A DNA stretch of 64,000 nt from IMG/VR virus record IMGVR_UViG_3300029787_000010, positions 32,001 to 96,000 of that record, one strand, 5' to 3'. Positions 27,770-63,147 of this stretch are shown here, one piece after another (within the stretch, counting starts at the first letter, position 1; the number at the start of each line of letters is the position of its first letter). This stretch comes from a virus. The position numbers were made by a program, and so were the translations under genes. The notes beneath the pieces were generated by a model. That model did not search any database, was not told the DNA's origin, and was given only the letters and a program-made list of their open reading frames with translations.

Positions 27770-29064
27770 CAATTCACCCCTATTACATGGTCCGCACTGA
27801 CTACTTGTAAATCAAACCTGTAGTAGTTTTCCGCACCTTCTTTGCTCATGTGGAATGATTCGGGTATCACCGAAATGCCACCGCTATTGAGGGTCGCACC
27901 TCGCGCCGTAACCTTAGCCCACGCATCTCCAATGACATCGCCAATACCATCTATAGAAAAGCCAAACACATCTTCAATCACACTGGATTCGGGCTCACCT
28001 GTTTCTTCTTGGCCACTGCTGTCAAAAGCGCCGATGTCCATCGGCAGCGTACTCGGGCGAGTGTTGCGAAGCGAGCCCTTCTGCAAAGGAGACACTTTGC
28101 CCGCAGTGAGAAAAAAATTGCGTACAACAGGCGTAATGTCGTTTGAAGTGATGAGTGAGTTGTAGGGTATTTGGATGCCTCGTAAAAGGTCCTTGTCCTT
28201 TGTGCTATTCGCCAGCAAACCAAGCAAATTTTGGGCCTTATCACCTGCGCTCAAAACCTTACCTCCCAAGCCGTCCGAACTGGTTTTTTGAACTGCGATT
28301 GGGACCGGCCGACCTAATCCTGTATTCATAGCGAAAAACGGATTGTATCGCACAGCGTCGTTGACAAAGGTGTCCACCAATGTTAGCGTAGTACCCGAAA
28401 CGGAGTCATTGAAAGCATCAGTCACTTGCTTTCCACTCACGCCGTCCACGCTACTTGTTTTGGTAATTTCAGTGGTCAATTGAAGGGCATCCTGTACGAT
28501 AAGTGCTAATGTGCTGGCGGGGTTTGAGTTGGCTGAACTGTACATCACACCGCCAACCGGGACATCAATTTGCACTTTGCCTGTTTTTTCAGCCAAATTA
28601 AACGATGCGTTGACAGATGGTGTAGCGGAGCCGCCTGCACGGTTTGAAACAGAACTGTTGAATTGTAGGACTATGTAGTTGCCCGACAGAAGCGAAGCAC
28701 CACCATTTGGTGAGTTGTATCGCCAGTAGGCTGGCTGCAAGCCGATGAGCGAAGATTGTAGGTTGGTCTGTGTCGCAGTGTTTTGTACATTAACGACAGG
28801 TGTAGTTGTCGGCAATATGTTGGCGAAGTTCATGACGAGGGACGAAGGTGCAGAAGTAGTAAGGGCGCTCATAGGGTCGTCTTGAATGATGCCTTGTACA
28901 CTGATGACGATTTGGGGTATGTTGGTATCAATGGCTGCACGATAGGAACTGATAGGTACAGGGAATGCAGCCACTGTCCGCTCGGCCACGATGTTGATGT
29001 CGGTGGCGTCCACGAAGACCTCATGTCGGTCTTTCTCGCCAAAAATCAGTCGCAGCGGAATCAT
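27769..29064 (-). CDS. Distal-tail/baseplate-like protein, paralog 2
   Basis: Shares SAGDKAQxLLG..ANS, GIQIPY and RNFF.T with the upstream gene; lies downstream of the tape-measure position. Confidence 0.6.
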   Translation of the reverse strand: MIPLRLIFGEKDRHEVFVDATDINIVAERTVAAFPVPISSYRAAIDTNIPQIVISVQGIIQDDPMSALTTSAPSSLVMNFANILPTTTPVVNVQNTATQTNLQSSLIGLQPAYWRYNSPNGGASLLSGNYIVLQFNSSVSNRAGGSATPSVNASFNLAEKTGKVQIDVPVGGVMYSSANSNPASTLALIVQDALQLTTEITKTSSVDGVSGKQVTDAFNDSVSGTTLTLVDTFVNDAVRYNPFFAMNTGLGRPVPIAVQKTSSDGLGGKVLSAGDKAQNLLGLLANSTKDKDLLRGIQIPYNSLITSNDITPVVRNFFLTAGKVSPLQKGSLRNTRPSTLPMDIGAFDSSGQEETGEPESSVIEDVFGFSIDGIGDVIGDAWAKVTARGATLNSGGISVIPESFHMSKEGAENYYRFDLQVVSADHVIGVN

Positions 29065-38638: not shown

Positions 38639-38912
38639 GTTTCCCTAAGTTATAATCCATTTGCTTGCCACAAGTTCTGCACTTGTCAACCCAGCAGAAG
38701 TAAAGCATACCACAGTCCGTACAGCGAGTGCCTGCACCGATGTTCAAAACATCGCCAGTCTTGCGTGTACGGATGCGTTGCTTGGAAGTGATGCCATCAA
38801 GAGGTCGCTCCGTGTTGTGAACCGAGCCAACGCCAAAGCGTTCAGCAAAGCGGATGCCTCGCTTCTCAAGGCGCTCTACTTCGTCAAGTCCAATCGTCGC
38901 TTCATCCATCAT
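38628..38912 (-). CDS. Zinc-ribbon protein
   Basis: CTDC...CWVDKCRTC. SD GAGGTGG favours ATG 38912. Confidence 0.7.
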   Translation of the reverse strand: MMDEATIGLDEVERLEKRGIRFAERFGVGSVHNTERPLDGITSKQRIRTRKTGDVLNIGAGTRCTDCGMLYFCWVDKCRTCGKQMDYNLGKHGE

Positions 38913-38919
38913 AACCACC

Positions 38920-39093
38920 TCAACTGGTAGTCACGAAGATAAACACATTCCCAAGAATCACATGCGGGTCTGCTGACACGCAAGTGTTGGAGCCAATTGC
39001 CGTACTGATTTCAGTCGCAATCGCCGTTTTCTTCGTTGAGTCTTGAAAATCTCTCGGAGCAAACGGACCAAGGATGGTGACGCTCTTTGCCAT
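38920..39093 (-). CDS. Small hypothetical (57 aa), probably structural
   Basis: Hand translation MAKSVTILGPFAPRDF...VFIFVTTS*; SD GAGGTGG; fills the gap exactly. Below the ORF-track cutoff. Confidence 0.7.
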   Translation of the reverse strand: MAKSVTILGPFAPRDFQDSTKKTAIATEISTAIGSNTCVSADPHVILGNVFIFVTTS

Positions 39094-39103
39094 CTAAGCC
39101 ACC

Positions 39104-39412
39104 TCATCGGCGACCAATAGCAAGGAAAGTTCCAGCGACAGTGTTTCCGCCAACTACAGCAGGGACGATTGTAATCGTCGTGCCACTCACAGTACCAGTG
39201 TCTTGAAGGTTAAGGTTGGCGGGTGTACCGCCATCATCCGCAACAGTAGAGTCAACCACTTGAGGTGTGTTTGCGGACGGATTCAAAATAAGCCCATCAA
39301 TGCTGGTCATAATGCTGCTCAAGTCAATGCTTGTGTCAGTCGCTTCGTAAGAGCCGGTCGCTACGATTCGGTCGCCAAAGTAGGTTGGTCGGGGGTCAAT
39401 TGTTACTGCCAT
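39104..39412 (-). CDS. Putative capsid decoration/minor head protein
   Basis: Small T/G-rich beta protein downstream of MCP; shares the AACAGGAGATGA leader with MCP. Confidence 0.55.
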   Translation of the reverse strand: MAVTIDPRPTYFGDRIVATGSYEATDTSIDLSSIMTSIDGLILNPSANTPQVVDSTVADDGGTPANLNLQDTGTVSGTTITIVPAVVGGNTVAGTFLAIGRR

Positions 39413-39414
39413 GT

Positions 39415-39798
39415 TTATTCATCTCCTGTTGGGGTTTCTGCCTTTGCTTCTTCAAGAACTTCGGCTGTTGGTTCGGCTACGGGTTCCGGGTTTAAGAAAG
39501 CATTGACAGATTTGAGGAGAGTGGCTTTGGTGGCGTAGCCGCCGACCGCAAGTCCCTTCTCTTTCATCCATGCGCCAATGTCCTTCTTGGTCCAGCCAGC
39601 ATCGGGGATGCCGTCGTCGCCTTCGTCAACTGTGATGCCGTCGCCTTCAATCCGCCACCACTTCTTGTTCAAGCGGTTTCGGTTGGCGTCAAGGTATTCT
39701 TGAGGCACTTCCATGGGAACCCCACGGACTGCCATGATTCGCTTCATGCCGGGGACTCGCCTTTCAAAGTAAGGCCCAAGTGCCGTAATCGTGGGCAA
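39415..39798 (-). CDS. Small head-associated protein with HeH/SAP-like domain
   Basis: WTKKDIGAWMKEKGL...ATKATLL motif. TTG start after SD GAGGTGG (ORF-track start 39813). Confidence 0.6.
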   Translation of the reverse strand: MPTITALGPYFERRVPGMKRIMAVRGVPMEVPQEYLDANRNRLNKKWWRIEGDGITVDEGDDGIPDAGWTKKDIGAWMKEKGLAVGGYATKATLLKSVNAFLNPEPVAEPTAEVLEEAKAETPTGDE

Positions 39799-42893: not shown

Positions 42894-42900
42894 TATTTAA
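42894..42900 (-). promoter_or_regulatory. TATA-like box TTAAATA upstream of the protease-MCP operon
   Basis: About 25 nt before ATG 42869/42866, which has no SD; archaeal leaderless spacing. Confidence 0.45.
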
Positions 42901-45900
42901 TCAGTATGGATGACAGCCTTCTCGTCTGTAAGTTCCAAATCGCCTTGCAGTGCGTCGTTTTTAGGAAACTTTTTCTTGTCTTCGGCCGATTCCTTCTCAT
43001 CACGCTCAATGTCACGGACATCGTAATCGGGCATGGTTTTAGCATCGTTGAGGTTCGTGGGACCACTGGGTGATTGGATTGGTGTAGCAAAGTCAAAGCC
43101 CAAACCTTTGGCTCCCCCGTGATAGTCGCCAACAGCACCAACGCTGCTCTTCTCCAACAGTCGCTCTAACAGCAACAGGCTCTTGCTAAGGATATGGCGT
43201 TTCTTGCGCTTCCATTCTGTGCCCTCTACTTTGTGAGGTTCGGTAAGTGGTTCGGCTGGTTCTGTAGATTCTTTGACCTCAGCCTTTTCTTCAATCTCCA
43301 ACTTGCCCTTGAGAAGCACACCGACAACTGGGGACCAAAACGGTCGTTGATTTTCACTAAGGCGAAGCACATGCGGGTTGTCAGCCTCGGGCGTATGCAC
43401 CGACCACTCGTCGCCCCGTACTGTCGCTTTGTAAACTACGGCACTGTCGCCGATTTTGATTTGAACATGCCTGCCCTTTCGGAACACTTCTACAGGGTGA
43501 TGATACAACTCACCCTTCGCCAGCATGGACAGGGATTCGGAACTAACCAGCCCTTCACCCTCGGCCTCGCCTTCAATTTTGGGAGCGTGCACGGTGTAAA
43601 CTTTCTGTCGCTCGGAAGCCTCAGTCTCTGTTACATTGGTGACATCTACACGCACCAAATCTCCAACATCATACTTGTCTTCACTTTGGAATGATGCACC
43701 CACATCCATGTAGTCATCCCCGTCATGCTTGACACGACGGTCACCTAAGTCTTCGCCGTGTGCGATAGGGCCGGTGCCAAGACGATACTGATACGGACCT
43801 TCGCCACGGCGGTCAAGCACCATAAGCACAACCTCCGAGCCGGGCTGGAGCATTACCCACTTTGGATGGCGTGGCTCACCCTTCATGTAAGCAGACTTAG
43901 CGTCCCGCATCAAAATGCGTGGACCTTCCAAGTTCTTGACAGCCGACTTCAAGCCAGCATCATCGGTGAGTTTCGTGTCGGATGCACTGGGCGTATGAAC
44001 CATCTCCACGCTTTCAAGTGCTCCTCGCAAAACCTTGATGCGCTCTTGGATGGGCATGTCGTAGGTGTCGCTGCCGTCAAACTCCAGTATGTCAAAAATG
44101 TGGATGACATCCTTTCCACGAATAGCGTCAATCACGAAGTCTTTGTCACTGACTTTCTTGAACGCAGCCTTTTCTTCATCCGACAGGTCTGCTTTGGATT
44201 CAATGTCGCCGTCCTTTTTGGTAACAAAGAAGCGGGGGCCTTCGGGAAAGTCGCTGACAATCCAGTCGCCCGTGAAGCCTTTCAAATGCTCCATGTCGTC
44301 CAATTCAAAAATGCGGTGCATGGCTTGCAGCGATGGCACACCGTCCGGCATATCCTTGCGGATAAAGTCCGGATTTGTGAGCGAAGCCAAGAGCGAAGGG
44401 CCATCCATCTTGTTACGCTGAGCACTGACTTGCTCATTATGCCTTCGGCCGATGGCGCTCTCCCGCATGCTACGAGGGCGCTCCTCGTTGGCTACTTCCG
44501 AACGGTGGTCCCCAAAGTAAGCACGATGCTCCGGAGCGAGCGCATGAGCGTTTTCCAAAGTAGGTGTGACCAACGATTCTTTTTGGGGCTCATCACGGCG
44601 ATAAATCTGCATGTTGCCGTCTTCATCAATGTGACAGCCAAGTGACACATCGTGAATGTGACCCCAGTTCATGCGATAGGCAGGACTGTCGTACAACGAC
44701 TGGACACCATCGCCGTCATGCCCGCCGGCTCGCCCGATGTGCTTGTACTTGAGTGCCTTTTCTCGCTTGATGTGCGTTGGTTTAACTGCCGGCTCGTGCC
44801 CTTCGGGCATGATAAGGAACGAATCAAGGATGTCCAATTTACGATGGGCCTTCGCATTATGCTTGTCTTTGACCTTTGTCCCCTTTTTGGGGCGTGGTTT
44901 TTCAGCAATAAAATCCCCATCAGCAAGAAGCAGTGCATTATCAGCCGTCTGTCCCTTATCGCTCAGCATCACATTTTTCAATTGATTTAGAGCATCATTG
45001 ATACGGGCTCTTCGTTGGTGGCGTGGAGCATTCGGGTGATTATCAGCAACTTTGTGGGGCTTGCCCCGAATGTTGTTTTCCAACATGATTTGATGCGGCA
45101 TGGCACTACGGCTCATCGCAGCAAACTTTGGCTGAGCGTCACCGTTCTCATCAATGTAATACGACAGGTCATCCTTGACATGGGCGTGAAGGTCGCCCAT
45201 TCCCCGTAAGTTAAGTTCCTCTATGCCGCCAACATTTTGCAGAAACTGGGCCACCGGCATGACATGAAACGCTTGTTCAGCGGGGAACTTGTCACGCAAT
45301 TTTTTGTGAACTGCTCTCAATTTAGCCACGGCTTCGTCCCGTGCAATGTTGGTCTTACCGGCTGCCTTGTTGCCTTCAAGGTCATACTCGGCTGCTTGCA
45401 TGCCCAAGGCCTCAAGCCAGTCTTCGGCTTCATTCTCCAACGACAAAGGCTCCCCATGCAATTGTGGTGCAAGATGCTGCACATTGAGTCCAATTTGAGC
45501 AAGGAGCAAACCCTTTCTACCAGTTTTGCTTTCCACTTCGTCAAAACTCGGATGCAGTGCCTGTAGTCCGTGCGCTTCGTGTGGGGCCTTGTTGGCAAAA
45601 GTGTTACCGTGTCGCATAGCCCAAGCCACGGCTGTGGCCGGACCCATGTCCGCTATGGGGTCAAAACCCTGCTCGTAGGCTGCTCGCATAACTTGCTGAG
45701 CCGCCTGCTCAATCACACTGTTATGGTTGGTCAAAATCTCGTGCATGGTGTCGTGTTCACGGTTTCGGGGTTCCTCTCCCGGTTTGACCTCTTCATAATG
45801 TTGGTCCAAGTCCTTCTCAAGCGCCCTCATTTCAGCGTAGAGTTCCTTCAAAGCCTGTGCCTTTTCGTCAATTTTTTCTTGGTGATGGGCACTGGTATCG

Positions 45901-48584
45901 CTGTTCCTTTCTTGCTCTTCAAGTAGCGCATCCAGTTCCTCTTGCACATCAAAATAATCATTGGTAATATGGTCCAACTCTTCTTCCTTTTGCATGGCCA
46001 GTCGGCGATGAGGAGTATCGTCCAATGAAGGCGCAGTTTCCATAACCGAATCTCGTTGGCGACGAAGGTCGTCCTGCAATTCTTCCTGCTCTTGGATTTC
46101 AGTAGAAATGATGTTCATGGCATTTTCTTTCTGCTCGTCCGTCATGTCTGTTGTGGGAACACGAGCAACTTGCTCCCGCAAAAACTGCAACCTGTCTTGA
46201 GAAGTCGCAATCTGCTCGTCTATCTCTACAGCAGCAGGGAGCGTTTGCTCGCCTTCACGCAGCGGCGAAATGTCCTCCCTCCGGCGAAGAATTTGGTTTT
46301 CTTCACTGGGTCTACGCATAACACGAGCAAACTCAGCCGCATCACCCGTCGTGTGGTGAGCGTCGTCGGGTACTGCCGAGCCGTGATGGATGCCCGACTG
46401 AGGGTTCCCCGGAGGAGCAGCCAGTCCCAAATAGGTCGGAGCAGCATGGTGATGACGGGATTCCAAGAAATCAACATCGGTGTTGCCCAAGTGATAGTAC
46501 GGGTTGCTGACAGTGACGAGTGCATTTTTCCTGTTCATGAAATGCTCGTCAAGGTGCGCACCGGCTGCTGCAAATCCTTCGCGTGTTCCGGCTGCGACCA
46601 AGTCATGAAACTCTTGAAATTGCTCATCGTGATAACTGCCCGACCACGAACTCTTGTTTCGTGCGGCATGACGGTTGCCTGCGAATGTTAAACCTCTGCT
46701 GACCCCTGCGGGATTCATAGCCGAAGCGAGGTCCGTTGGGTCACGAGCGATGTACTGCCCGTCAACACGCGATGCGTTGACTTCGGGCGGAGCAAACGGA
46801 GCAGCAAGCCCTCCAGTGTGGACCACGGCTCCGCCCCGACCGGAAATGGCCAAATTCTTCGCAGCCTCCTGTGCTGGCGTTAGTTCGGGTATCTCAGACA
46901 ATACACCTCGCTCACCCTCACCAACAACTTCGGGAGCCTCTACTGAGATGGGGCCTTGTGTGTGATGCGTTTTTCCGTCCGGCGTAGCAAACGCAGCGTG
47001 ACGCATGTCTTCCACCGTGCGGTAAGTTTTACCGTGACCGCCTGTGCCATGAAGTGTCCAGTGAGTCGCCAATGTACGAGGGCGGCCTCCGGTGTAGGCT
47101 TCCGGATGCCCACCGTTGCCCTCGGTTCTCACGGAGTGGTTGACATGAAATTGCAGGGCGTTGCGAATATCGTTTTGTGCCTTGAATGAAGAACGCTCCT
47201 CGTCAACGGCTGTCAAGAAGTTTTCAATGTCCTGTGGCGTCCATGTGACAAGGCTACTCTTTGGCTCCCATCCGCTGTAAAACGGATGCTCACCAGCAGG
47301 GTAAAACTCGTACCCAGCCTCATTCTGCTTCGGACGAACACCCGCTGCAAGAAGCAATTCTTTACGACTGATAGCACGAGCATCCAGTTGTCCGTTTTTG
47401 TCGCCTTCAACCTGCCTTCGGGTCAACGGCTTCAATTTAATTTCACCGTCTGCATCAACCTTCAAAAAATCATAACCGTGTTTCGGCTTTTGAGCAGTTT
47501 TGTACTTGTCTCGCCTGCGCGTCTCAATATCGGTGTGATACTTATGGTGGGCTGCAATCCCTTGATAAAACGAATTTCCAAGCGACCCAGTCATTCGGCT
47601 GTAGAAGAAAGTGCGACTGTCTTTGTTTGAAGGCGTAGGGACGATAGGCGAGCGTATGGGTTCACCCAAGTTCATCGGTGCTCGTGTAAAGTGCTTATGA
47701 TAGCCCGACTCTCGTTGTGCACGGCTGTACTTTGCTCGGGGCACTGAGTAATCCATATCAAGTTCCGGTATGCGCTGGTGGTCGGGTGATTCTGTCCCGT
47801 GTTCTTTCATATGTGCACGAGCAATCCGACGCTTGCCCCTTGTCATCCACTCCATGCCCTCAAAGTAGTCCTTCTCACCCAACTTCCACTCGGGGTCGTT
47901 TTGCCATTTACGCTCATAATCGTCAAGGTGCACTTTCCGGAAAAATTGTTTCAAAGCGGCTTCGTTTTGACCACCTGCAATCATGCCTTCCATGGCAGTT
48001 TTTGGCGTAGCGCCACCCAAGTTGTCAAGTGGCGTGTCCATCCACTCAGCAAAGTTGTCTTCGTAACGAGCGTGATGAGTGTGCTCGCTGTCCAATCTAC
48101 CCATAGCCATGTAGGAAAGAATCGGGTGTATTTGCCCGCCAATACCGGAACTCATGTGGTGCAGAACCCAAGACATTTCTGCATCAGCGTCCTCTTTGGA
48201 CTGGCCGGATTCGTAAAACGACCGCACTTTGCGGATATGCAGTGGTGCAATGCCGATTTCGGGATGGGCTTCCAAAAGCGGGTTGAACTCGGGATGGACG
48301 GGGGAAGTGTCGGCGAAGTGCCCGGCTTCGGAATAGGTCTGCTGAGTGGTAGGTGCATTAACACCTTCGTGTGTCCACCGTCCGCTCATGTCGCCCAAGT
48401 CTTGGACGCCCGTCATTCGCTCAGCATGCGGGTGAGCAGGAGCCAGCGTTTCTTGGATGAAAGTCCCGCCCGTATCGGTAAGTGTAGGGCTGGTTTCGGG
48501 GACGAGGGTTTGAGTGTCAATTTGAGCACTCGTGGCTTGGTCAGCCTGTTCAAACTGGTCTTTGAGAAGAATGTCGTCCGACAC
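42897..48584 (-). CDS. 1895-aa protein with C-terminal degenerate ATP-dependent DNA ligase-like (NTase + OB) domain
   Basis: FVIDA, IFDILEFDG...ERIKVL, ILMRDAKSAYMKG...KWVML and a downstream OB-like region. Motif I reads SDFPEGPR, lacking the Lys. Confidence 0.75.
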   Translation of the reverse strand: MSDDILLKDQFEQADQATSAQIDTQTLVPETSPTLTDTGGTFIQETLAPAHPHAERMTGVQDLGDMSGRWTHEGVNAPTTQQTYSEAGHFADTSPVHPEFNPLLEAHPEIGIAPLHIRKVRSFYESGQSKEDADAEMSWVLHHMSSGIGGQIHPILSYMAMGRLDSEHTHHARYEDNFAEWMDTPLDNLGGATPKTAMEGMIAGGQNEAALKQFFRKVHLDDYERKWQNDPEWKLGEKDYFEGMEWMTRGKRRIARAHMKEHGTESPDHQRIPELDMDYSVPRAKYSRAQRESGYHKHFTRAPMNLGEPIRSPIVPTPSNKDSRTFFYSRMTGSLGNSFYQGIAAHHKYHTDIETRRRDKYKTAQKPKHGYDFLKVDADGEIKLKPLTRRQVEGDKNGQLDARAISRKELLLAAGVRPKQNEAGYEFYPAGEHPFYSGWEPKSSLVTWTPQDIENFLTAVDEERSSFKAQNDIRNALQFHVNHSVRTEGNGGHPEAYTGGRPRTLATHWTLHGTGGHGKTYRTVEDMRHAAFATPDGKTHHTQGPISVEAPEVVGEGERGVLSEIPELTPAQEAAKNLAISGRGGAVVHTGGLAAPFAPPEVNASRVDGQYIARDPTDLASAMNPAGVSRGLTFAGNRHAARNKSSWSGSYHDEQFQEFHDLVAAGTREGFAAAGAHLDEHFMNRKNALVTVSNPYYHLGNTDVDFLESRHHHAAPTYLGLAAPPGNPQSGIHHGSAVPDDAHHTTGDAAEFARVMRRPSEENQILRRREDISPLREGEQTLPAAVEIDEQIATSQDRLQFLREQVARVPTTDMTDEQKENAMNIISTEIQEQEELQDDLRRQRDSVMETAPSLDDTPHRRLAMQKEEELDHITNDYFDVQEELDALLEEQERNSDTSAHHQEKIDEKAQALKELYAEMRALEKDLDQHYEEVKPGEEPRNREHDTMHEILTNHNSVIEQAAQQVMRAAYEQGFDPIADMGPATAVAWAMRHGNTFANKAPHEAHGLQALHPSFDEVESKTGRKGLLLAQIGLNVQHLAPQLHGEPLSLENEAEDWLEALGMQAAEYDLEGNKAAGKTNIARDEAVAKLRAVHKKLRDKFPAEQAFHVMPVAQFLQNVGGIEELNLRGMGDLHAHVKDDLSYYIDENGDAQPKFAAMSRSAMPHQIMLENNIRGKPHKVADNHPNAPRHQRRARINDALNQLKNVMLSDKGQTADNALLLADGDFIAEKPRPKKGTKVKDKHNAKAHRKLDILDSFLIMPEGHEPAVKPTHIKREKALKYKHIGRAGGHDGDGVQSLYDSPAYRMNWGHIHDVSLGCHIDEDGNMQIYRRDEPQKESLVTPTLENAHALAPEHRAYFGDHRSEVANEERPRSMRESAIGRRHNEQVSAQRNKMDGPSLLASLTNPDFIRKDMPDGVPSLQAMHRIFELDDMEHLKGFTGDWIVSDFPEGPRFFVTKKDGDIESKADLSDEEKAAFKKVSDKDFVIDAIRGKDVIHIFDILEFDGSDTYDMPIQERIKVLRGALESVEMVHTPSASDTKLTDDAGLKSAVKNLEGPRILMRDAKSAYMKGEPRHPKWVMLQPGSEVVLMVLDRRGEGPYQYRLGTGPIAHGEDLGDRRVKHDGDDYMDVGASFQSEDKYDVGDLVRVDVTNVTETEASERQKVYTVHAPKIEGEAEGEGLVSSESLSMLAKGELYHHPVEVFRKGRHVQIKIGDSAVVYKATVRGDEWSVHTPEADNPHVLRLSENQRPFWSPVVGVLLKGKLEIEEKAEVKESTEPAEPLTEPHKVEGTEWKRKKRHILSKSLLLLERLLEKSSVGAVGDYHGGAKGLGFDFATPIQSPSGPTNLNDAKTMPDYDVRDIERDEKESAEDKKKFPKNDALQGDLELTDEKAVIHTD

Positions 48585-55395: not shown

Positions 55396-57605
55396 ACGCC
55401 ACCCCCAAAGGTGACCTTGACCGCCTTGACGATTTCGGGACCGACATTCCAGTCGTTTGCTACACGGTGCCAGTCGCCGTGCGAGTGGTAGATACCGTGA
55501 ACATCCATCACGCTGATGCCGAGTGATTTGGCTACAACACTGACATCGTCAGCCTTGGTGATTCGGGACCGGTATTGAGCCAGTGATTTAACCACGGTGT
55601 CTTGACTTGCTTCTTTGAATTGAATACGCTCCATGGTCTTGAGCAGGTCGCTAACCGTGCGCTCTTCGGAAGTGATGATGCTGCCGTCGTCCAGTCGTTG
55701 TTGCCGAGATACCCTTTGAGTGCCTTCAAAGTCTTGAAAGGACGGTTGGGGTAAGTTCGCAGAAGCCCGTGATACTCCCGGTGTGAGGTTCGTCAATTGA
55801 GCGCGGGCCGCTTCAATCTCTTCCATGCGAGTGGGCGCAGCAGCGTCCCCCATGGCTTGCCGATGCAGTTCCGGACTATCTGCATTGTTATCAAGCATGT
55901 TTCGTGTGACTTCATGTGCTTGGTCAGCCGTTGGCGAAACACCTTGGGGTATGCCGTGCACATGGCCAGCCCAATGGTCGGGCACAGACGAGTGAATAGC
56001 GTGGTGAGGGTGGTCTTTGTGGGCCTCGGGGAGTTTACCAGTGACTTGGGACCTTTGTCCTCTATGGTCGTCGGTATTACGAAACGCATTGGCGAATTGG
56101 AGGTATGCGTCGTGGTTTGCCTCATCATAAGCATGGTCTTTGTGGTCGTAGTCTGCGTTGCGAAAATTATCAAGTGCCTGCGCCCAAGCGTCCTGTTGGC
56201 TCTCCACTTGCCCCGATGCAACAAGGTTAAGTGAATGCATCCAAGGAATAGCGTACAAATCACGAGAACGATTAAGACCCTTATTCTTTGATGGGCCTTT
56301 GCGAGTTGCGATAGAGTCCCGAACCCGTTTGTACATGGGAGAATCCATGTCCACACCAAGTGATGCAGCAACCCCTCTCAAAATGGCCGGTGCCCGTGAG
56401 TTATCGTTTACTTGGTGTCCCGTCCCACCAATCAAGAATTGTGAAATGGGCATGGATGCGTATTGCCTGTACTTTTCTATGTCTTCCGGTTTAATTTCTA
56501 CCCCAATGTTACGAAGTTCTTGCATAATTTCGTTAGTACGAGATGCGATTTCAGCCGAATTTTCAACTTGGGCTCGCTTTTTACCACCCATTTTTCGTGT
56601 TGGTGTAGCGAACAGTGCTTTAGGAGCGAACTGCGCTACATCCAGCGGGTGGTAATTCTCAATGACTTTCCCCGACTTGTGTCCGGGAATCATACCGCTT
56701 CCATCTTCGCCAAAATGCTTCTTTGCTTCGGGCCCACTGAGTGCTTTGACTCGTCCAAAGGTCATGTTGTCAAGGCGAACTTTGGAGCCTCCAAGGTAAT
56801 GAAATCTGTCCTTGGGTGGCAACTCAACCCCTAATTGCTCTCGGTACATATTACGAAGACTTTCGTACAGTTCTGCTGTTGAATCATACATTGGATGCAC
56901 GCCACCGTCAATGAACATCCCTTTGTCAGCACCTTCCAAGTCATGCAAGTTCCCCATGTTTGCGGAGTAATTAGTTGGGCGACCGTCTTCGGTCCCGACT
57001 TGCCTTTGGCTGCGAACACTGTTCCCGTCAAAAGGTCCCGATGTGTTTAGTCGCCACAGCACGCTATTTACATCGGGTAACTTTTGCCCGGTTTTGTTGT
57101 GATTGTCAATGGCCCCTTGAAATAATTGCTTAACAAGGTCCATGTTCCAAATTGGAATGTTGTGTTCTTCTCCAAATCCGGGGTTGCGAGCATCCGGGTT
57201 GATACCCTCTTTGATAAGGTGACTCCGTATTACAGAATGCATGTGCCCCATCATGTAGTCAAGCGGGTGAGAACTTTCGGGCTCGGTTACACCATTGCGA
57301 GTGCGATGAAGAAGGCGACCTGTTTTGAAGTCGTGACCAAACGGCGGGTGGTGGGCTCGCACGCCCTCGGGCCCTTCAAACTGGTCGTACCAACCAATGT
57401 CTTCGGGTGGATTGAATACTTCTTTGGGTGACCAGTGGCGAATCGGATGCGTCTCATCCTCACCGATGTGATACAGACCGTAGGATTTGCGAAGCACCAT
57501 CTGCTGCTTCATGATGTTCCATGTGCGGTGAAGCGTGTCTACGATGTCAAACCTGCCACGGCTCTCGGCCAGCGAGTCCGACGAGTAGTGAACACGAAAC
57601 ATCAA
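55392..57605 (-). CDS. Hypothetical protein (737 aa)
   Basis: Long ORF overlapping both neighbours by 4 nt; no recognised domain. Confidence 0.7.
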   Translation of the reverse strand: MMFRVHYSSDSLAESRGRFDIVDTLHRTWNIMKQQMVLRKSYGLYHIGEDETHPIRHWSPKEVFNPPEDIGWYDQFEGPEGVRAHHPPFGHDFKTGRLLHRTRNGVTEPESSHPLDYMMGHMHSVIRSHLIKEGINPDARNPGFGEEHNIPIWNMDLVKQLFQGAIDNHNKTGQKLPDVNSVLWRLNTSGPFDGNSVRSQRQVGTEDGRPTNYSANMGNLHDLEGADKGMFIDGGVHPMYDSTAELYESLRNMYREQLGVELPPKDRFHYLGGSKVRLDNMTFGRVKALSGPEAKKHFGEDGSGMIPGHKSGKVIENYHPLDVAQFAPKALFATPTRKMGGKKRAQVENSAEIASRTNEIMQELRNIGVEIKPEDIEKYRQYASMPISQFLIGGTGHQVNDNSRAPAILRGVAASLGVDMDSPMYKRVRDSIATRKGPSKNKGLNRSRDLYAIPWMHSLNLVASGQVESQQDAWAQALDNFRNADYDHKDHAYDEANHDAYLQFANAFRNTDDHRGQRSQVTGKLPEAHKDHPHHAIHSSVPDHWAGHVHGIPQGVSPTADQAHEVTRNMLDNNADSPELHRQAMGDAAAPTRMEEIEAARAQLTNLTPGVSRASANLPQPSFQDFEGTQRVSRQQRLDDGSIITSEERTVSDLLKTMERIQFKEASQDTVVKSLAQYRSRITKADDVSVVAKSLGISVMDVHGIYHSHGDWHRVANDWNVGPEIVKAVKVTFGGGV

Positions 57606-58654
57606 GCCGTCCTCCCGCTACCCCTGCTCACAAAGTGGTGACCGGAGGCACCGGCAGAACGGAACTCATCAGCCTCTTTGTTGTCAGTGCCCCCTTGAGG
57701 CTGAGTGGTTTCACCATCACGGTGCCCAGCCTCACCTTCTTTGGAGGTACCCTTGCCGGACGGCGGTGCTTTCTTGGCTGACTCCTTGCGAGCGATGGCT
57801 CGCTTCAAGTCTCGCAAAATGTTGCGCAATTGGCTGAGGTGAAGGTAGCCCGAAGCCGACTTAACGAGCATCTGCATCTCTTGAAGTTCGGACTTCATGG
57901 TCATGGGCTTGAACTTTGTACGGCGTTCGGGGTTGTGCCCTTGATAGGGCAAGGAAATGTTACCGCGATTGGCCTGCATGGCTCGGGTACCGAGACTTTG
58001 GCGGTATTTGTCGGGAAACAAACGCAGAGGCTGCTTAGTATCAAGTCCAAGGTGGGACATCTCAACGGCTTTATCAGCATTAACCATGCCACCCTGTTCA
58101 GTACGAGGACTGAGTGTACGGGACTGTCGCTTGGCACGCATGGATGTTGCTTGCTTTTGACGAGAGCGGCCACCGGGGGGAGCCTTGAACTGCTGGGTGG
58201 AGAAGTCGCCGTCTCGCTTGAGCAGTTGGAAAGCGATGTCCATCGGCTCACCGGCCATGACAGTTTGCTGACCGTATGGACTAAGTGCCTGTGCACCAAA
58301 ACTGATGCTGGCTTCGGGAGAACCAGTGCCCGGCGAGCCAGTGAGGGCACTGAGTTCATTCTGTTGAGCCATAGGCGTTTCTTCCATCATGTCCTCTTCC
58401 GGCTCGTCCATCGGCATAGGAGTGGGCATACCCATGTCGGGTTCTTCCGATTCAATGTTGAACTTGAGATGGGGCAGTTCACGCGTCTTAACACGCTCCT
58501 CCTTCTCCTTCATTTTTTTGTCCTTCATTTGGTCCTCATGTTCAGGTGAACCCTTACCGTGCCGGTAGTCTTCGCCGTCCGAATAAAGGTGGTCCGAATC
58601 GGACCGGGGGGAATACATGCGGGTGTCAGTACCGGTACCCATGCTACTGGTCAT
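57602..58654 (-). CDS. Hypothetical low-complexity protein (350 aa)
   Basis: Coupled ORF; contains GEPMDIAFQLLK. Confidence 0.7.
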   Translation of the reverse strand: MTSSMGTGTDTRMYSPRSDSDHLYSDGEDYRHGKGSPEHEDQMKDKKMKEKEERVKTRELPHLKFNIESEEPDMGMPTPMPMDEPEEDMMEETPMAQQNELSALTGSPGTGSPEASISFGAQALSPYGQQTVMAGEPMDIAFQLLKRDGDFSTQQFKAPPGGRSRQKQATSMRAKRQSRTLSPRTEQGGMVNADKAVEMSHLGLDTKQPLRLFPDKYRQSLGTRAMQANRGNISLPYQGHNPERRTKFKPMTMKSELQEMQMLVKSASGYLHLSQLRNILRDLKRAIARKESAKKAPPSGKGTSKEGEAGHRDGETTQPQGGTDNKEADEFRSAGASGHHFVSRGSGRTA

Positions 58655-59361
58655 GCGCTACCCTCCTGTTCTAACAAGCCGCTGATGTCAATTTCGTCGC
58701 CTTCCTGTGTGAGCAAGGCTTCTTTGACGCGCTTCCAAGTATCGGGACTCTCCTTTGCCATTTCAACTTTGAGGATGTTGATGGTGTTTGCCACCATTTT
58801 CTCCTCGGGCTCAACCCACGCCTTTTGAAATGTGGTTAAGTCTTTGATGGACTCACGAATCTCTTTGCTTAACCTCACCATATCCGAAACAGCCCCATCA
58901 TCGTGGATGCTGACCTCGTCCATGTAGCGAGACAATTTCTCATTGAGGCGTTCAGTGTTGTGTCGCAAGATGTCAGCCTCTTGACCTACTTTGATGGACA
59001 CGATGGCTGATGCACTTTGCTTGACGATGGGCTGGAAATGTTCTTTCATGTGCTTGTAAACAGTAGCCTCACTGCAATTCAACTCTTGAGCAATCTCTTC
59101 GGTGGTCATACCTTCGTCAAAGTAAGCGACTTCGTACATACTTCGGTGGTCGTCCGTGCATATCACGCAGCGGTAGTTGGAACCTTCCAAGTTTTCACCA
59201 GCATGATTCCGCATGTGGCGCTCAGCCGTGTTGGCTCGCCACCCTTTGTCCCGGTCCATGGTGCGCACATCAGCGGTACCTTGAGCAAGATTCATCTCAA
59301 GTTCGTCACGGTCGGGGTCTTGGCAGAAAGGGCAAGAACGCTTGCTTTGCCTAACTCCCAT
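58651..59361 (-). CDS. Candidate terminase small subunit (two Cys2His2/HTH repeats + coiled coil)
   Basis: CPFC..R...HMRNH and CVIC..R...HMKEH repeats; TTEEIAQELNCSEATVYKH HTH; first gene of the unit leading to TerL. Confidence 0.55.
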   Translation of the reverse strand: MGVRQSKRSCPFCQDPDRDELEMNLAQGTADVRTMDRDKGWRANTAERHMRNHAGENLEGSNYRCVICTDDHRSMYEVAYFDEGMTTEEIAQELNCSEATVYKHMKEHFQPIVKQSASAIVSIKVGQEADILRHNTERLNEKLSRYMDEVSIHDDGAVSDMVRLSKEIRESIKDLTTFQKAWVEPEEKMVANTINILKVEMAKESPDTWKRVKEALLTQEGDEIDISGLLEQEGSA

Positions 59362-59419: not shown

Positions 59420-59671
59420 ATGCCAAGACTGCCCAAAATGAATGTCAAAGTGGCCGGAATCCCTATGACAAAGGAAACGGCTGTTTCATTGTCAAAGGCT
59501 GCAAGAGATGTGGCTTTGCGACGAAAGGTAAGTCCGGAAGAGCGGGGTCGCAGACTCTCTATCTGCCAAGAATGCCCAAGTTGGACAGGCACACGATGCA
59601 AAGACTGTGGATGCATCATGCGAGCAAAAGCATCACTCAAATCGTCCACCTGTCCGCAAGACAAGTGGTGA
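59420..59671 (+). CDS. Small Cys-rich protein (DUF6171-like)
   Basis: RLSICQECP...CKDCGC...K...CPQDKW; SD GTGAGG; its stop abuts the convergent gene at 59672. Confidence 0.75.
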   Translation: MPRLPKMNVKVAGIPMTKETAVSLSKAARDVALRRKVSPEERGRRLSICQECPSWTGTRCKDCGCIMRAKASLKSSTCPQDKW

Positions 59672-59881
59672 CTATTGTTGTGAAATACGGGTGTAAATCC
59701 CCGTAGCGAGTAGAATCGCACCCATCATAGCGCCCATCATGTAAGCCATCATGTCCGATGAGAGTTTTCCCGAGCCGGTCAAGAGCACCAATGATAGCGT
59801 AACGATGATGGTCAGCACCTGTACCATCACCATGTCTACAATGACGCTCTTCTTTGGAGCAAAAATATCACGCGTTGACAT
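59672..59881 (-). CDS. Small two-TM membrane protein
   Basis: VIVDMVMVQVLTIIVTLSLVLL and MMAYMMGAMMGAILLATGIY; likely ATG 59881. Confidence 0.7.
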   Translation of the reverse strand: MSTRDIFAPKKSVIVDMVMVQVLTIIVTLSLVLLTGSGKLSSDMMAYMMGAMMGAILLATGIYTRISQQ

Positions 59882-59924
59882 GGCAAAGCCATGGTAAATT
59901 CCGGGCATACCTCGGTCATTCATT

Positions 59925-60572
59925 TCATCGTCCTCCCATCATACTGCGGGCAAAGGAACCAACGCCTCCGCCCACCTTTTGCATCATACCTTCGTCAGCC
60001 AAGGCTGCTTGGAGCGCACCGCCCATCATTGATTGTTGGGCCATCGCAAGTATTTGCTGTTGCTGCATCTCCATTTGCTGGATATTTTGCTGACTGGCAC
60101 TTTGCATTTGATTGAATTGATTGGTGACATTCTCCGCACTCATGGTTTGAAGGTTGGAAGGGAGGGAAGTTACATCCATTTTCATGGTCCCATCGTCTTC
60201 ATTGATAACAAAAGTAGCGTTTTTCATCACTTCCAGCACTGAAAAACTGACAAGGTCGTTCAACATTTGAACGAGTGTCGCCATTTGGGCTGACGCTACG
60301 AACCTGTCCATGGGTGCGACGGAGCGCATAAGTGCCAGTTGAATCTCAGCCTCGCTTGGAGGGGTAATAGGCTGCTGCATCATACCCGGATTCATACCCA
60401 TACCCTGCATCATACTGCCTCCAAAAGCACTTTGACCAAAGTTTTGCATGGTGCTTGGGGGCTGTTGATTGAAGCCAAAGGGCTGTTGAGGGGAATTGGT
60501 AGGTGCACCGAGGTTCAAGGCGCTATTTTGTTGCTGATTGTTGCCAAATAACATGTTTTCACCTACTTTCAC
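59925..60572 (-). CDS. Q/M/G-rich hypothetical protein
   Basis: Low-complexity termini, amphipathic C-terminus; start is GTG 60572 or ATG 60554. Confidence 0.7.
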   Translation of the reverse strand: MKVGENMLFGNNQQQNSALNLGAPTNSPQQPFGFNQQPPSTMQNFGQSAFGGSMMQGMGMNPGMMQQPITPPSEAEIQLALMRSVAPMDRFVASAQMATLVQMLNDLVSFSVLEVMKNATFVINEDDGTMKMDVTSLPSNLQTMSAENVTNQFNQMQSASQQNIQQMEMQQQQILAMAQQSMMGGALQAALADEGMMQKVGGGVGSFARSMMGGR

Positions 60573-61552
60573 ACTTGCCCTTGCACCGACTGAGGACCAT
60601 TCTCCTCTTCAACCTGTTGGACAGGAGGGGCACTGGGCAGCGTAATACCCATTTTACCCACTGCATCAAGTATGCCGGGTTGAGTATTTTGGTCAATTTG
60701 ACCCAATTCTTGCTGAAAAATCCTCAAATCAAAGACAACCATGGTCACATCGTTCATTTTTGACACCGGATTTTGGTAATGAAGGATAGAAATACCGCTT
60801 GTTTGGCGTGAATCCTGCTCTAATTGCTTGAAAAAAGCCTCATATTTGGACAAAAATTGGGGTGTATTGTCCTTCTTTTTGACCATAGAGATGGGTACAG
60901 CGACCGTAGAAACGCCTTTTTTGACCATTTCTCGCATACCGGACTTGCTGGAAAGGCGAACTTTGTCGTTTTCATCCTCCCATTTGCACAACAAATGGTA
61001 CAAATGGAGGTGTTCGGGGCAATAAGTACCCCGCATACTGCGCCCATCAGTCACATTTTCTTTGGCTACGAACGCTTGAACCTCTCCAGACACTGGATTT
61101 TTCCAATAAAGGTCCCAAAGGCTCTCACCAGTGCCCTCATCGCATATTTTTGAGTACAAATTGTCGTATTTGATGAGTTCAACGCAGTCACAACCGTCCA
61201 CAACGCATCGCTCATGCTGTTTATTGTACCTGTACTTCATTCCAAGCCACCGAAGTGGGTTAAAAATGCTCCTTTTGCTGGGTCGGAGCAACTTTCGGGC
61301 CTGCTTGATGTCTTTTTTGCGGGCTTTGCGTGAATCGGGGTGCCGACTGGGGTAAAAATTGACTTTTGGTACCTCAATGTTGCTTTTTACAGCCGCTTCA
61401 CGCATTCCTTGCTGCGCACCCTGCATTTCAAGCAGTTGTTCGTGGGTAAGGTTGCCCTGTTGCGATAATGCGACCATTTGATTGGCATCAAGTGCGTACA
61501 AATTGCCATTTCTTTGTTGTGGGACTTGCCCATACCGTCTTAATCCATTCAT
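60569..61552 (-). CDS. Hypothetical protein with putative Zn-binding Cys/His motifs
   Basis: CVVDGCDC...YCPEH; SD GAGGTGA; directly downstream of the GTPase. Confidence 0.7.
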   Translation of the reverse strand: MNGLRRYGQVPQQRNGNLYALDANQMVALSQQGNLTHEQLLEMQGAQQGMREAAVKSNIEVPKVNFYPSRHPDSRKARKKDIKQARKLLRPSKRSIFNPLRWLGMKYRYNKQHERCVVDGCDCVELIKYDNLYSKICDEGTGESLWDLYWKNPVSGEVQAFVAKENVTDGRSMRGTYCPEHLHLYHLLCKWEDENDKVRLSSKSGMREMVKKGVSTVAVPISMVKKKDNTPQFLSKYEAFFKQLEQDSRQTSGISILHYQNPVSKMNDVTMVVFDLRIFQQELGQIDQNTQPGILDAVGKMGITLPSAPPVQQVEEENGPQSVQGQV

Positions 61553-61563
61553 TTGTGTTCACC

Positions 61564-62280
61564 TCATGTTGAAAGCAAGTCTACCATCGTATTTTCTACA
61601 TTCCAGCCTATTCGGGTGGCCATCATACCCCTTCGGGTAGGTATGCCGGCTTTTTGTAAACGAATAAGGTCTTCCCGAAATGGGTCAAAAATACGATGTT
61701 CTCCAAGGCGCTGTTGTTGCCACAGAGTATTCGCTTGCTCATCCCACCACTTATCCGCCTTATTGGCGACTAAAAGAATGACTTTCGGCGTGTATTTTTT
61801 GCCTTTTAGCCAACTTTTTAGATTTCTGTACCGATATTGGCGATAAATGAGAGCGTCTACCAAGAATTTGAAGCCACCAACGGCATCAATGGTCGTGTCA
61901 CCCCCCGCCGAAGCCCTGTCATCAAACATAAACACCACCGCTTCTACCCTTCTGTTGACCATATCATCAACCCAAAGGTTCCAAAAACGCTGTTCACCAC
62001 CCAAATCAGCCGAATGAATGACACGGGTTTCACCCTTGTACTTGACTCGCTTACGACTGGGGCGAGGGAGAAGGAATTTTCCAAGCACCTTTGTGTGTGT
62101 AGTACGCTTGTCAAGTGCAATATCCTCCATTTCACCGGGTGTAGTCAAGTATTTGTCCAATGTCGTCTTACCAGCCATCGGTGGTCCGTAAATACCAACA
62201 CGGCGGGGAATCCAATAGTGGTAAAGTTCTTTGGCAAAAATAACGCCACCTACCATTGCGGAGCCCGCTGCTGCACTCAT
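61564..62280 (-). CDS. Arf/Sar1-like small GTPase (Ras superfamily) with hydrophobic N-terminus
   Basis: G1 GPPMAGKTT, G2-like RTT, G3 DLGGEQRFWNLW, AVVFMFD, G4 NKAD, G5-like MATRIGWNVE. Confidence 0.85.
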   Translation of the reverse strand: MSAAAGSAMVGGVIFAKELYHYWIPRRVGIYGPPMAGKTTLDKYLTTPGEMEDIALDKRTTHTKVLGKFLLPRPSRKRVKYKGETRVIHSADLGGEQRFWNLWVDDMVNRRVEAVVFMFDDRASAGGDTTIDAVGGFKFLVDALIYRQYRYRNLKSWLKGKKYTPKVILLVANKADKWWDEQANTLWQQQRLGEHRIFDPFREDLIRLQKAGIPTRRGMMATRIGWNVENTMVDLLST

Positions 62281-62522
62281 TCAAACCAGCCCATGACTTC
62301 ATTGGCCATCCAATTGACAGTGTGTTCCCAAAAACTCCAATTGTTGTGGTACTCAAACGCACTAATTGCCAACGCACTGATGAATGAAAAAATAATCGTC
62401 TTAACCCATCCCCATGTGCGCTCATAGGCAGTGTCCAAAGTGTTGGCCATGTGAATAGCACGGAGCGTTGACTCCGTCGCATCATCACTTGGCGTTTTGA
62501 ACAGCCAGCCCACAGACCTCAC
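62277..62522 (-). CDS. Small single-TM membrane protein
   Basis: WVKTIIFSFISALAISAF; 4-nt overlaps with both neighbours (alternative GTG at 62513). Confidence 0.72.
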   Translation of the reverse strand: MRSVGWLFKTPSDDATESTLRAIHMANTLDTAYERTWGWVKTIIFSFISALAISAFEYHNNWSFWEHTVNWMANEVMGWFE

Positions 62523-63055
62523 TCCTTCTTCTTGAATTTACCATCAGCGCCACGGTTGGCGCTGGTGTCTTTGTCGTCAAACGATACGCCCAAATCAAGA
62601 GTTTTATCACCTTTCTCGGGATTAAATGAACCTGTGTCAAGCGAGATGGGGTCGGAGAGGTTCATCGGTGGTATTTTGCCGGGATTGTTTTCCATCCAAC
62701 GAAGTTCTTGCTCAAGTTGTGCCTCTTGCATTCGCAACTCCATGTCCTGTCGTCGCCGTTCAAAGGTCATTTCCATAGAGCGGTATCGGTTCCTGCGCTC
62801 TCGTTCCATTTCGGATTGCCGAGCCTTGTCATCCATGCCCTGTTGAAAGAACATTTTGAAGAAGTAGTAGGCAATGCCTTGAACAAAGAAAGCGCCCATC
62901 GCATAGGTGAAAGCGTTCAACATTGTACTTTCTAAATCAATCCAAATACCGGCGTTAAAAACACCTATGGCAAGTCCGACATTTAACGACTGCATGAGGA
63001 TAAGCCCCATCAGCCGGATTTCACTTTGGTCAACGCTTTGGCTACCGCTTGTCAT
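62519..63055 (-). CDS. Two-TM membrane protein with coiled coil
   Basis: Two hydrophobic helices, then an E/R/M/Q-rich coiled coil; SD GAGAGG. Confidence 0.75.
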   Translation of the reverse strand: MTSGSQSVDQSEIRLMGLILMQSLNVGLAIGVFNAGIWIDLESTMLNAFTYAMGAFFVQGIAYYFFKMFFQQGMDDKARQSEMERERRNRYRSMEMTFERRRQDMELRMQEAQLEQELRWMENNPGKIPPMNLSDPISLDTGSFNPEKGDKTLDLGVSFDDKDTSANRGADGKFKKKE

Positions 63056-63090
63056 GCAATCCTCTCATATAACCCCAAAATGCACAAGGA

Positions 63091-63100
63091 CATAAAACCT
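63091..63100 (-). promoter_or_regulatory. TATA-like element (AGGTTTTATG) upstream of the GTPase operon
   Basis: In a 92-nt intergenic gap, the longest I found in the late block, about 36-45 nt before ATG 63055. Confidence 0.35.
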
Positions 63101-63147
63101 TCTAAGGTGGGCTGTACGCTGAGAGGTAGCGAAACAGCCCTTGAGTA

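Follow-up and report, generated by a model that had tools for sequence, protein, structure and literature searches.

Bases 32001-96000 of a 104,980-bp IMG/VR virus record (estimated completeness 98%) make up the window analyzed here, a stretch of 64,000 nucleotides, and our subject is a cassette of six genes, g1 to g6, on its minus strand. The six genes are real and form a co-conserved, signal-bounded unit, in which g3 encodes a small GTPase nearest to the Arf family and three of the partner genes encode membrane proteins. We tentatively read the cassette as a viral operon, complete in itself, that encodes a GTP-switched membrane complex. This complex would bend or breach the host membrane, most likely for release, and we favor this interpretation as possible rather than probable.

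Organization and Boundaries of the Cassette

The open reading frames (ORFs) of the window include six on the minus strand between 59672 and 63055, exactly where the sequence-only reading, an earlier annotation of this DNA, had placed them. The first, g1 (62519-63055), encodes a membrane protein of 178 amino acids and is followed by g2 (62277-62522; 81 amino acids, a single transmembrane (TM) segment) and g3 (61564-62280; 238 amino acids), the GTPase gene, whose product carries the motifs GxxxxGKT, DxxG and NKxD. Downstream lie g4 (60569-61552), for a soluble protein of 327 residues with 6 Cys and 7 His, g5 (59925-60572), for a protein of 215 residues from a GTG start with 14% Gln and 13% Met, and g6 (59672-59923), for 83 residues with two TM segments. 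The g1/g2 and g2/g3 junctions are 4-nucleotide overlaps, g3 and g4 are separated by 11 nucleotides and g5 and g6 by a single one; the g4/g5 junction is an overlap with the GTG start or a 14-nucleotide gap with an ATG start. Coordinates and junctions alike bear out the earlier description of six same-strand genes that overlap or are tightly spaced.

A 92-nucleotide gap (63056-63147) precedes g1, and the stop of the upstream gene lies at 63148. Within this gap, a TATA-like box (TTTTAT, 63092-63097, minus strand) stands 36 nucleotides upstream of the g1 ATG, as the sequence-only reading had noticed, and a Shine-Dalgarno-like GAGAGG (63061-63066, minus strand) lies 5 nucleotides before that ATG. 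Both signals recur in relatives: of 45 distinct upstream regions, 40 have a TTTAT/CTTATG-type motif in the corresponding position, compared with 7% of random 55-nucleotide windows, and many relatives have GAGAGGG where the window has its GAGAGG. Between the upstream stop and the TATA-like box, a GC-rich hairpin (GGGCTGT...ACAGCCC, 63109-63140, minus strand) would be either terminator-like or regulatory; hairpins with other stem sequences fold at the equivalent place in L007, L013, L028, L032 and L070, with energies of -23 to -34 kcal/mol.

At its other end the unit is bounded by a gene outside it, on the plus strand at 59420-59671, which encodes a Cys-rich protein of 83 residues matching Pfam DUF6171 (E 2.2e-8) and phrog_13558 (E 3.5e-14). 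Its stop at 59671 abuts that of g6 at 59672, the convergent arrangement proposed earlier, and its start faces the divergent promoter region of a block that holds a helix-turn-helix (HTH) protein gene and the terminase gene. The DUF6171 gene lies on the opposite strand in 60 of the 71 related loci described below. The TATA-like motif and hairpin upstream, together with the convergent gene downstream, make it appear that the cassette has its own promoter and ends against a convergent gene. The minus-strand gene run nevertheless continues upstream of g1 (genome 95148-104978), so the unit is delimited by signals and not by strand. The suggestion that it forms its own transcription unit thus gains a promoter-like signal and a convergent gene in its favor, while on the upstream side strand sets no limit.

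Conservation among Related Viruses

Related loci in IMG/VR were those recovered by way of the GTPase, 71 in all, with 58-96% identity in that protein. In 65 of them all six genes occur with order and strand unchanged, more than chance would give; contig ends cut three of the exceptions, and the other three have no detectable g6. Gene by gene, g4 and g5 are found in all 71, g2 in 70, and g1 and g6 in 68 each, so that the synteny across related viruses, singled out as a check by the sequence-only reading, does hold.

Rates were compared in five near-complete relatives, L007, L025, L034, L042 and L062, taken here in that order. Their GTPases are 77, 72, 68, 66 and 59% identical to the window protein, their large terminases 78, 78, 71, 75 and 54%, and their capsid proteins about 90, 84, 78, about 84 and 74%. 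Because the GTPase identities are similar to those of the large terminase, g3 is a core gene evolving at the rate of hallmark genes.

The spacing within the cassette is less uniform at one point. Insertions of 0.6-1.05 kb separate the GTPase gene from g4 in three relatives (L029:6717-7317, L033:6717-7774 and L034:6717-7403), and many others have gaps of 170-240 nucleotides there; this junction therefore tolerates insertions. GTPase genes of the viral type, 58-64% identical, were also seen on 8-16-kb contigs (L077, L078 and L079) binned with Maricaulis, Parvibaculum and a Promethearchaeati metagenome-assembled genome. We take these to be probably mis-binned fragments of magroviruses and not cellular homologues.

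A Divergent Small GTPase Nearest to the Arf Family

The g3 protein carries G1 (G32-x4-GKT), G3 (D92-x-x-G95) and G4 (N173-K-x-D176) motifs. In an alignment of 23 sequences, G32, G37, K38, T39, T40, D92, G95, N173, K174 and D176 are invariant; with distant members added, D92, G95, N173 and K174 remain so and D176 is kept in at least 90%. The family is further marked by two inserts of its own (about 40-75 and 146-166) and by invariant TTPGEME and RTxH motifs, the latter being R59-T60-x-H62 in the switch I region. The AlphaFold2 model (pLDDT 75.7, pTM 0.76) has a small-GTPase fold, in which a beta2-beta3 hairpin (75-92) is predicted for the interswitch region. Searched with Foldseek, it matches more than 500 small-GTPase chains at E <1e-3, with Rab, Rac and Ras at E ~1e-6, and VIA comparison with small GTPases gives Z 11-14 over ~155-175 residues. 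A small GTPase at the center of the cassette, as had been proposed, is thus confirmed by both motifs and fold.

Two independent lines place the Arf family nearest, each with a modest margin. In profile searches of the PDB with the viral-only profile A7, the best match is GerdArfR1 (3e-6), an Asgard Arf protein (10.1101/2024.02.28.582541), followed by Arl8A (2.6e-4), further Arl8A/B entries to 3e-3 and EF-Tu (2.8e-3); KRas (0.011), Rab33B (0.014) and SRbeta (0.029) come lower. In structure, a fold search independent of Foldseek has as its best rows Arl2 (Z 13.1), SRbeta (Z 13.0, root mean square deviation (r.m.s.d.) 3.0, 160 aligned residues) and Arf6 (Z 12.4). A second look at the Foldseek matches with VIA gives Arl8B (Z 13.9, r.m.s.d. 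2.7, 157 residues), Arl2 (13.7), GerdArfR1 (12.8) and Arf1 (12.5); seven of its 10 best rows are Arf-family proteins and Rab and Ras follow at about 11.3-11.8, a margin of only 1-2 Z units. We discounted a stronger profile result (GerdArfR1 at E 7e-11 with profile A2) as partly circular, for A2 includes the Arf-positive protein P0085.

None of the curated cut-offs of Pfam and NCBIfam is passed by g3. Its best curated matches are TIGR00231 small_GTP (E 5e-4, 19.8 bits against a cut-off of 42.5) and Pfam MMR_HSR1 (E 0.098, 13.2 bits against 21.9). The Pfam Arf model PF00025 does not match the window protein, and P0085, the most distant profile match, alone passes it (36.2 against 22.3 bits); the model is itself unspecific, with matches in 14 of 14 control genomes that exceed the cut-off in 13, all bacterial ones included. 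Since the window protein misses the Pfam Arf threshold, the label "Arf/Sar1-like" given to it earlier stands as a remote similarity, with Arf-family proteins nearest by profile and by structure, and not as curated membership. The evidence supports a very divergent small GTPase whose nearest known relatives would be of the Arf family. The family is also a small and isolated one, as its profile recovers only 86 clusters among 1.84 billion representative proteins.

Two regions of g3 bear on how it might work. In switch II, where Arf proteins have DxGGQ and Sar1 has DLGGH with a catalytic Gln or His, D-x-[GA]-G is kept and the next residue is Glu in the window protein, Gln, Asp or Glu in close relatives, and His, Gln or Ala in distant ones. 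A predicted N-terminal helix (3-23) is conserved and present in every family member; it is hydrophobic (mean H about 0.5) and has a low moment (about 0.15-0.2). A predicted complex of g3, with GTP and Mg, and g4 residues 20-300 scored 0.02, which counts neither for nor against binding.

The Partner Proteins

The five partners match no known family or fold, and PHROGs hold nothing for any of the six cassette proteins. By hydropathy, g1 has a strong TM segment at 15-33 (Kyte-Doolittle (KD) 1.88) and a weaker aromatic one at 44-66 (KD about 1.1), followed by a long charged helical-type region rich in Glu, Arg, Gln and Met and a Lys-rich tail. It had been described as a protein with two TM segments and a coiled coil: the two hydrophobic segments, one strong and one weaker, are there, but the heptad periodicity is only weak, with no clear register, and the coiled coil is not confirmed. 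No Pfam, PHROG or meaningful PDB-profile match was obtained for g1, and it has homologues in the distant lineages, with pairwise blastp E-values of 1.5e-8 to L073 and 6e-13 to L089 and a profile match to the independent locus L089 at E 3e-19 (small database). The g2 protein has a conserved soluble N-terminal part (consensus MGxIFKTPSDDATE), one TM segment by hydropathy and a Trp-rich C-terminal part, and its profile matches the equivalent small ORF of L089 at E 7.6e-9 (small database). Two TM segments, at about 25-52 and 58-76, the second Met/Gly-rich, are found by hydropathy in g6, and a small ORF with 2-3 TM segments occupies its position in the L089 lineage. The single-TM and two-TM assignments made earlier for g2 and g6 are therefore sound, and the Cys/His and Gln/Met contents given above agree with what was said of g4 and g5.

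In g4, a basic conserved stretch (about 60-95) is accompanied by conserved C116, C121, C178, H181, H183 and H186, which suggests a candidate metal site. Its AlphaFold2 model, although "confident" (pLDDT 75.8), matches no known fold (best VIA Z 5.1, best Foldseek E 0.18), and PDB-profile, Pfam and ESM Atlas searches gave no match. Homologues of g4 lie directly after the GTPase gene in L073, L076 and L089 (blastp E 3e-38 and 7e-32).

The g5 protein probably starts at the ATG at 60554 (209 residues) rather than at the GTG, because its relatives start at an ATG of the MLFGNN type. Its N-terminal part is disordered and rich in Gln, Asn and Gly, helices accompany a conserved PPSE motif, and the C-terminal part is Met/Gly-rich. 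Searches gave no ESM Atlas match and no meaningful PDB-profile match. Its sole family match, to the type III secretion translocon protein SctB (E 5.8e-4, below the cut-off), is probably compositional and was rejected.

The Cassette in Distant Lineages

Two more distant lineages keep the block. In the L073-L076 lineage, whose GTPases are 30-35% identical to that of the window, a thermosome gene is directly followed by genes for, in order, a g1-like membrane protein, a small protein, the GTPase, the g4 homologue and a Gln/Met-rich protein. Both L073 and L076 keep g3 and g4, and L073 additionally keeps g1, g2 and the Gln/Met-rich gene; it is in L073, the sister contig of L076, that the thermosome gene adjoins the cassette. 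The cassette core in the L076 record lies at G007:C1:34964-35530 and 38613-39527. This 110-kb record (79% complete) gave no match to the window terminase, to the window capsid protein or to the Pfam terminase and portal models, queries that do recover the window virus's own genes. It does hold an RNA polymerase A-like ORF of 1621 amino acids and a family B DNA polymerase (PolB). "Group D" magrovirus-like elements have been described as carrying DNA polymerase, thermosome, resolvase and RNA polymerase A without the morphogenetic block (Philosof et al., PMC5434244), and by its gene content the L076 record looks like one of these.

In the second lineage (L080, L085 and L089), with GTPases 38% identical, a g1-like protein with two TM segments and a g2-like protein are followed by one extra gene, the GTPase, the g4 homologue, a Gln-rich protein and a small protein with 2-3 TM segments. 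L089 has homologues of five of the six cassette genes in the same order. The extra gene, between the g2-like gene and the GTPase gene (L089:5217-5999, and also in L080 and L085), encodes 250-260 amino acids and has no Pfam match. Immediately before the block, on its own strand, come genes for GT4 and GT2 glycosyltransferases, and a serine recombinase gene also flanks it. The neighbors thus differ between the lineages, glycosyltransferases and a serine recombinase in one and the thermosome in the other, which, judged from gene order, marks the block as an autonomous unit that moves while its composition is kept. Scans of viral contigs by way of P0085, P0007 and P0038 found no further relatives.

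Genome Context

The window holds genes for a large terminase, a portal, a prohead protease, an SU10-type major capsid protein and a tail tube protein, and the genome also encodes a group II chaperonin (thermosome, E 1e-124), a PD-(D/E)XK nuclease, an ERCC4 nuclease and a family B DNA polymerase. A thermosome in a tailed virus of ~100 kb is the signature of group A magroviruses, which have been assigned to Marine Group II archaea and count among the most abundant viruses of archaea in the surface ocean (PMC5434244). The tailed-virus gene set and the thermosome support a magrovirus-like assignment for the window virus, in agreement with the affiliation assumed earlier. In this genome the cassette opens the run of packaging and structural genes; it lies on the structural strand, far from the replication genes.

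Amidase_2 and Phage_lysozyme, the two muralytic families tested, are absent from the 105-kb genome; the earlier statement that no endolysin is recognizable is upheld for these two. The partner proteins contain no enzyme family in Pfam, and g1, g2 and g6 have no holin family match in Pfam or PHROG. The 83-residue, two-TM layout of g6 is like that of class II holins, a likeness that proves nothing. Among greedy ORF calls of at least 50 amino acids, four other late-strand ORFs have a TM-like segment; they are isolated, none being adjacent to another.

Several other features of the genome were recorded. The gene at 58651-59361 (minus strand), which directly precedes the terminase run, encodes an acidic protein of 236 amino acids with an HTH of the sigma-70 region 4/LuxR type; it has a weak small-terminase PHROG match (E 0.002), is kept in 71 of 71 loci and may be a small terminase or a late regulator. 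Nine ORFs share a [DE]xxAWxxLK-type motif, mostly near the N terminus; they lie at genome 96522-104052 (from 64522 in window numbering, past the end of the window) and at window 57602-58654, and none of the six cassette proteins carries one. Two giant ORFs, of 5487 (11309-27772) and 1895 (42897-48584) amino acids, lie on the minus, structural strand. At the end of the late strand stands an HMGL-like gene of the HMG-CoA lyase family (7128-7955, minus strand, E 1.5e-20), adjoined by a TM ORF of 51 amino acids. The capsid protein is matched in two relatives by a pair of neighboring segments, query residues 1-184 and about 208/211-393, and ~25 residues are absent from between them (G001:C1:93289-94380 and G004:C1:32152-33246); the capsid gene could have undergone a deletion there or taken up a small insertion.

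A Proposed Membrane Complex and Its Possible Roles

In the model that we favor, the Arf-type g3 protein would be held at, or recruited to, the host cytoplasmic membrane through its conserved hydrophobic N-terminal helix, with the small integral membrane proteins g1, g2 and g6 in the same membrane. In its GTP state, g3 would nucleate or license the assembly of g1, g2 and g6 with the soluble partners g4, a probable metal-binding regulator or effector, and g5, which is rich in Gln and Met and may shield or bundle hydrophobic segments. The assembled complex would then bend, vesiculate or breach the membrane, most likely releasing progeny, and capsid-less relatives may use the same complex to shed the element in vesicles. 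The findings above bear out the first three of these steps in part, and the last two we infer from them. That g3 binds the membrane, that the six proteins interact physically, that expression comes late and that the membrane is affected are likewise inferred.

A putative role in egress, lysis or vesiculation, as first suggested by the sequence-only reading, is plausible. Lambdoid phages carry their lysis genes at the head of the packaging and structural run. We lean toward release because of the same position of the cassette here, the lack of the tested muralytic enzymes, and the state of knowledge on egress of tailed archaeal viruses, whose main players are wholly uncharacterized (PMC10791045).

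Several observations weigh against this view. The GTPase is as conserved as the terminase (59-77% compared with 54-78%), and in phages, lysis cassettes usually change quickly and are exchanged from genome to genome. In one distant lineage (L073) the block stands beside the thermosome gene and not beside structural genes, so late expression is not assured. The residue at the position of the Arf catalytic Gln varies (Glu, Gln, Asp, His or Ala), which obscures how GTP would be hydrolyzed, and the N-terminal helix is predicted to be more anchor-like than the amphipathic helix of Arf. Pfam, PHROG, PDB and fold searches gave the partners no homology to a holin, pore former, coat protein, GTPase-activating protein or guanine nucleotide exchange factor. 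Slow evolution and presence in apparently capsid-less elements make a poor fit to a classical phage lysis cassette and a better one to a vesicle-type, platform or general membrane-acting role. The fullest form of the proposal is rather doubtful: that the cassette is a release machine of tailed archaeal viruses in which the Arf-type GTPase would time the assembly of g1, g2 and g6 into a breaching or vesicle-forming structure, that group-D-like relatives would export the element in vesicles, and that an Arf-type membrane system, carried by viruses, would exist outside eukaryotes and Asgard archaea.

The same slow evolution can be turned toward an essential intracellular function, in which the GTPase and its partners would tether sites of replication or head assembly to the host membrane, or build an internal membrane compartment, without rupture. 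Eukaryotic viruses exploit Arf1 in a comparable way. Conservation at core-gene rates is as expected of such a membrane platform, and the block is found in group-D-like elements that have PolB and RNA polymerase A and in which no capsid genes were detected; in L073 its neighbor is the thermosome, a member of the replicative cluster according to Philosof et al. (PMC5434244). In the window virus, however, the block lies on the structural strand, far from the replication genes, and nothing links it to any replication protein. Nor do we know of any tailed virus of prokaryotes that needs a platform of this kind, and on balance we find one unlikely here. It is quite unlikely, in our judgment, that the cassette instead alters the host envelope to block superinfection or to modify receptors or glycosylation, with no part in the release of virions. 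Small membrane proteins are typical of superinfection-exclusion systems, and in L080, L085 and L089 the block comes directly after the GT4 and GT2 glycosyltransferase genes on the same strand, but that link is confined to one lineage. Exclusion genes, moreover, are as a rule accessory and differ between genomes; this block, by contrast, evolves slowly and is universal in the GTPase-recovered loci.

The more anchor-like N-terminal segment of g3 and the place of SRbeta among its top structural matches raise the thought of a targeting function, whereby an anchored GTPase would bring ribosomes or hydrophobic viral proteins to the membrane and the Met-rich g5 would act as holdase toward TM segments. 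Known binders of such segments, among them the SRP54 M domain and the SGTA C-domain, are Met/Gln-rich as g5 is. SRbeta nonetheless ranks below Arf/Arl in the profile search (E 0.029 compared with 3e-6), no SRX/longin-like partner and no SRP_SPB match was found with Pfam, and the sole obvious clients would be the block's own three small membrane proteins; we regard this function as improbable. Most improbable of all is that the membrane proteins and the GTPase are packaged in the virion and open a channel across the recipient membrane as the genome is delivered. The block does adjoin the packaging genes and lies between genes that share the AWxxLK-type motif, yet this motif is missing from all six proteins, the block is kept in elements without detected capsid genes, and a nucleotide switch would have to act inside a virion that has no energy supply.

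Comparison with Known Systems

Our literature search found no paper that links magroviruses to a GTPase or describes this block, and among the 451 protein clusters the sole informative name is an automatic JGI label, "GTPase SAR1 family protein". The cassette is offered as a concrete, clonable candidate for egress of tailed archaeal viruses, universal among the 71 loci, present in two distant lineages, slowly evolving and centered on a putatively membrane-associated GTPase. With it, the range of Arf-type GTPases that have membrane partners of their own also takes in viruses of non-Asgard archaea, and it bears on the pre-eukaryotic origin of GTPase-driven membrane remodeling and on the ArvA vesicle system.

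With the holin-based lysis cassettes of tailed bacteriophages, the block shares small proteins, each with one TM segment or two, whose genes stand together where the packaging and structural genes begin. It differs in its central GTPase, its core-gene conservation and its lack of a holin match and of the muralytic families Amidase_2 and Phage_lysozyme; unlike the hosts of those phages, the host of the window virus has no murein. A virus-encoded small GTPase is also known from Acanthamoeba polyphaga mimivirus, whose Rab (PDB 5XC5) matches the g3 model at Z 11.7. That protein is a recognizable Rab from a eukaryotic host, whereas g3 belongs to an orphan family in an archaeal virus and has dedicated membrane partners.

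The Arf family (Arl8, Arl2, Arf1, Arl1, Arl3 and Sar1, with SRbeta and the Asgard ArfR protein GerdArfR1, PDB 8OUN/8OUM) shares with g3 the fold with G1, G3 and G4, a D-x-G-G-type switch II followed by a conserved Trp-containing helix, and an N-terminal helix ahead of strand 1. At about 17-20% identity, g3 reaches no curated threshold, and it is set apart by its two inserts with TTPGEME and RTxH, its variable catalytic Gln position, its hydrophobic N-terminal helix and its origin in a virus of non-Asgard archaea.

The closest functional precedent is ArvABC (OapABC) of Haloferax and other Euryarchaeota, where vesicles form through the action of an Arf-like GTPase and its Zn-ribbon partner (PMC10927574). 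Both are operons of the archaeal world, centered on an Arf-like small GTPase whose N-terminal helix is hydrophobic, and in both a Cys-rich, probably metal-binding protein is encoded just downstream of the GTPase. The vesicle role is proven for ArvABC. Neither ArvB (DUF2073) nor ArvC (DUF2072) has a match among the five viral partners at E up to 0.1. To the elements held in common, the viral block adds three integral membrane proteins and a Gln/Met-rich protein.

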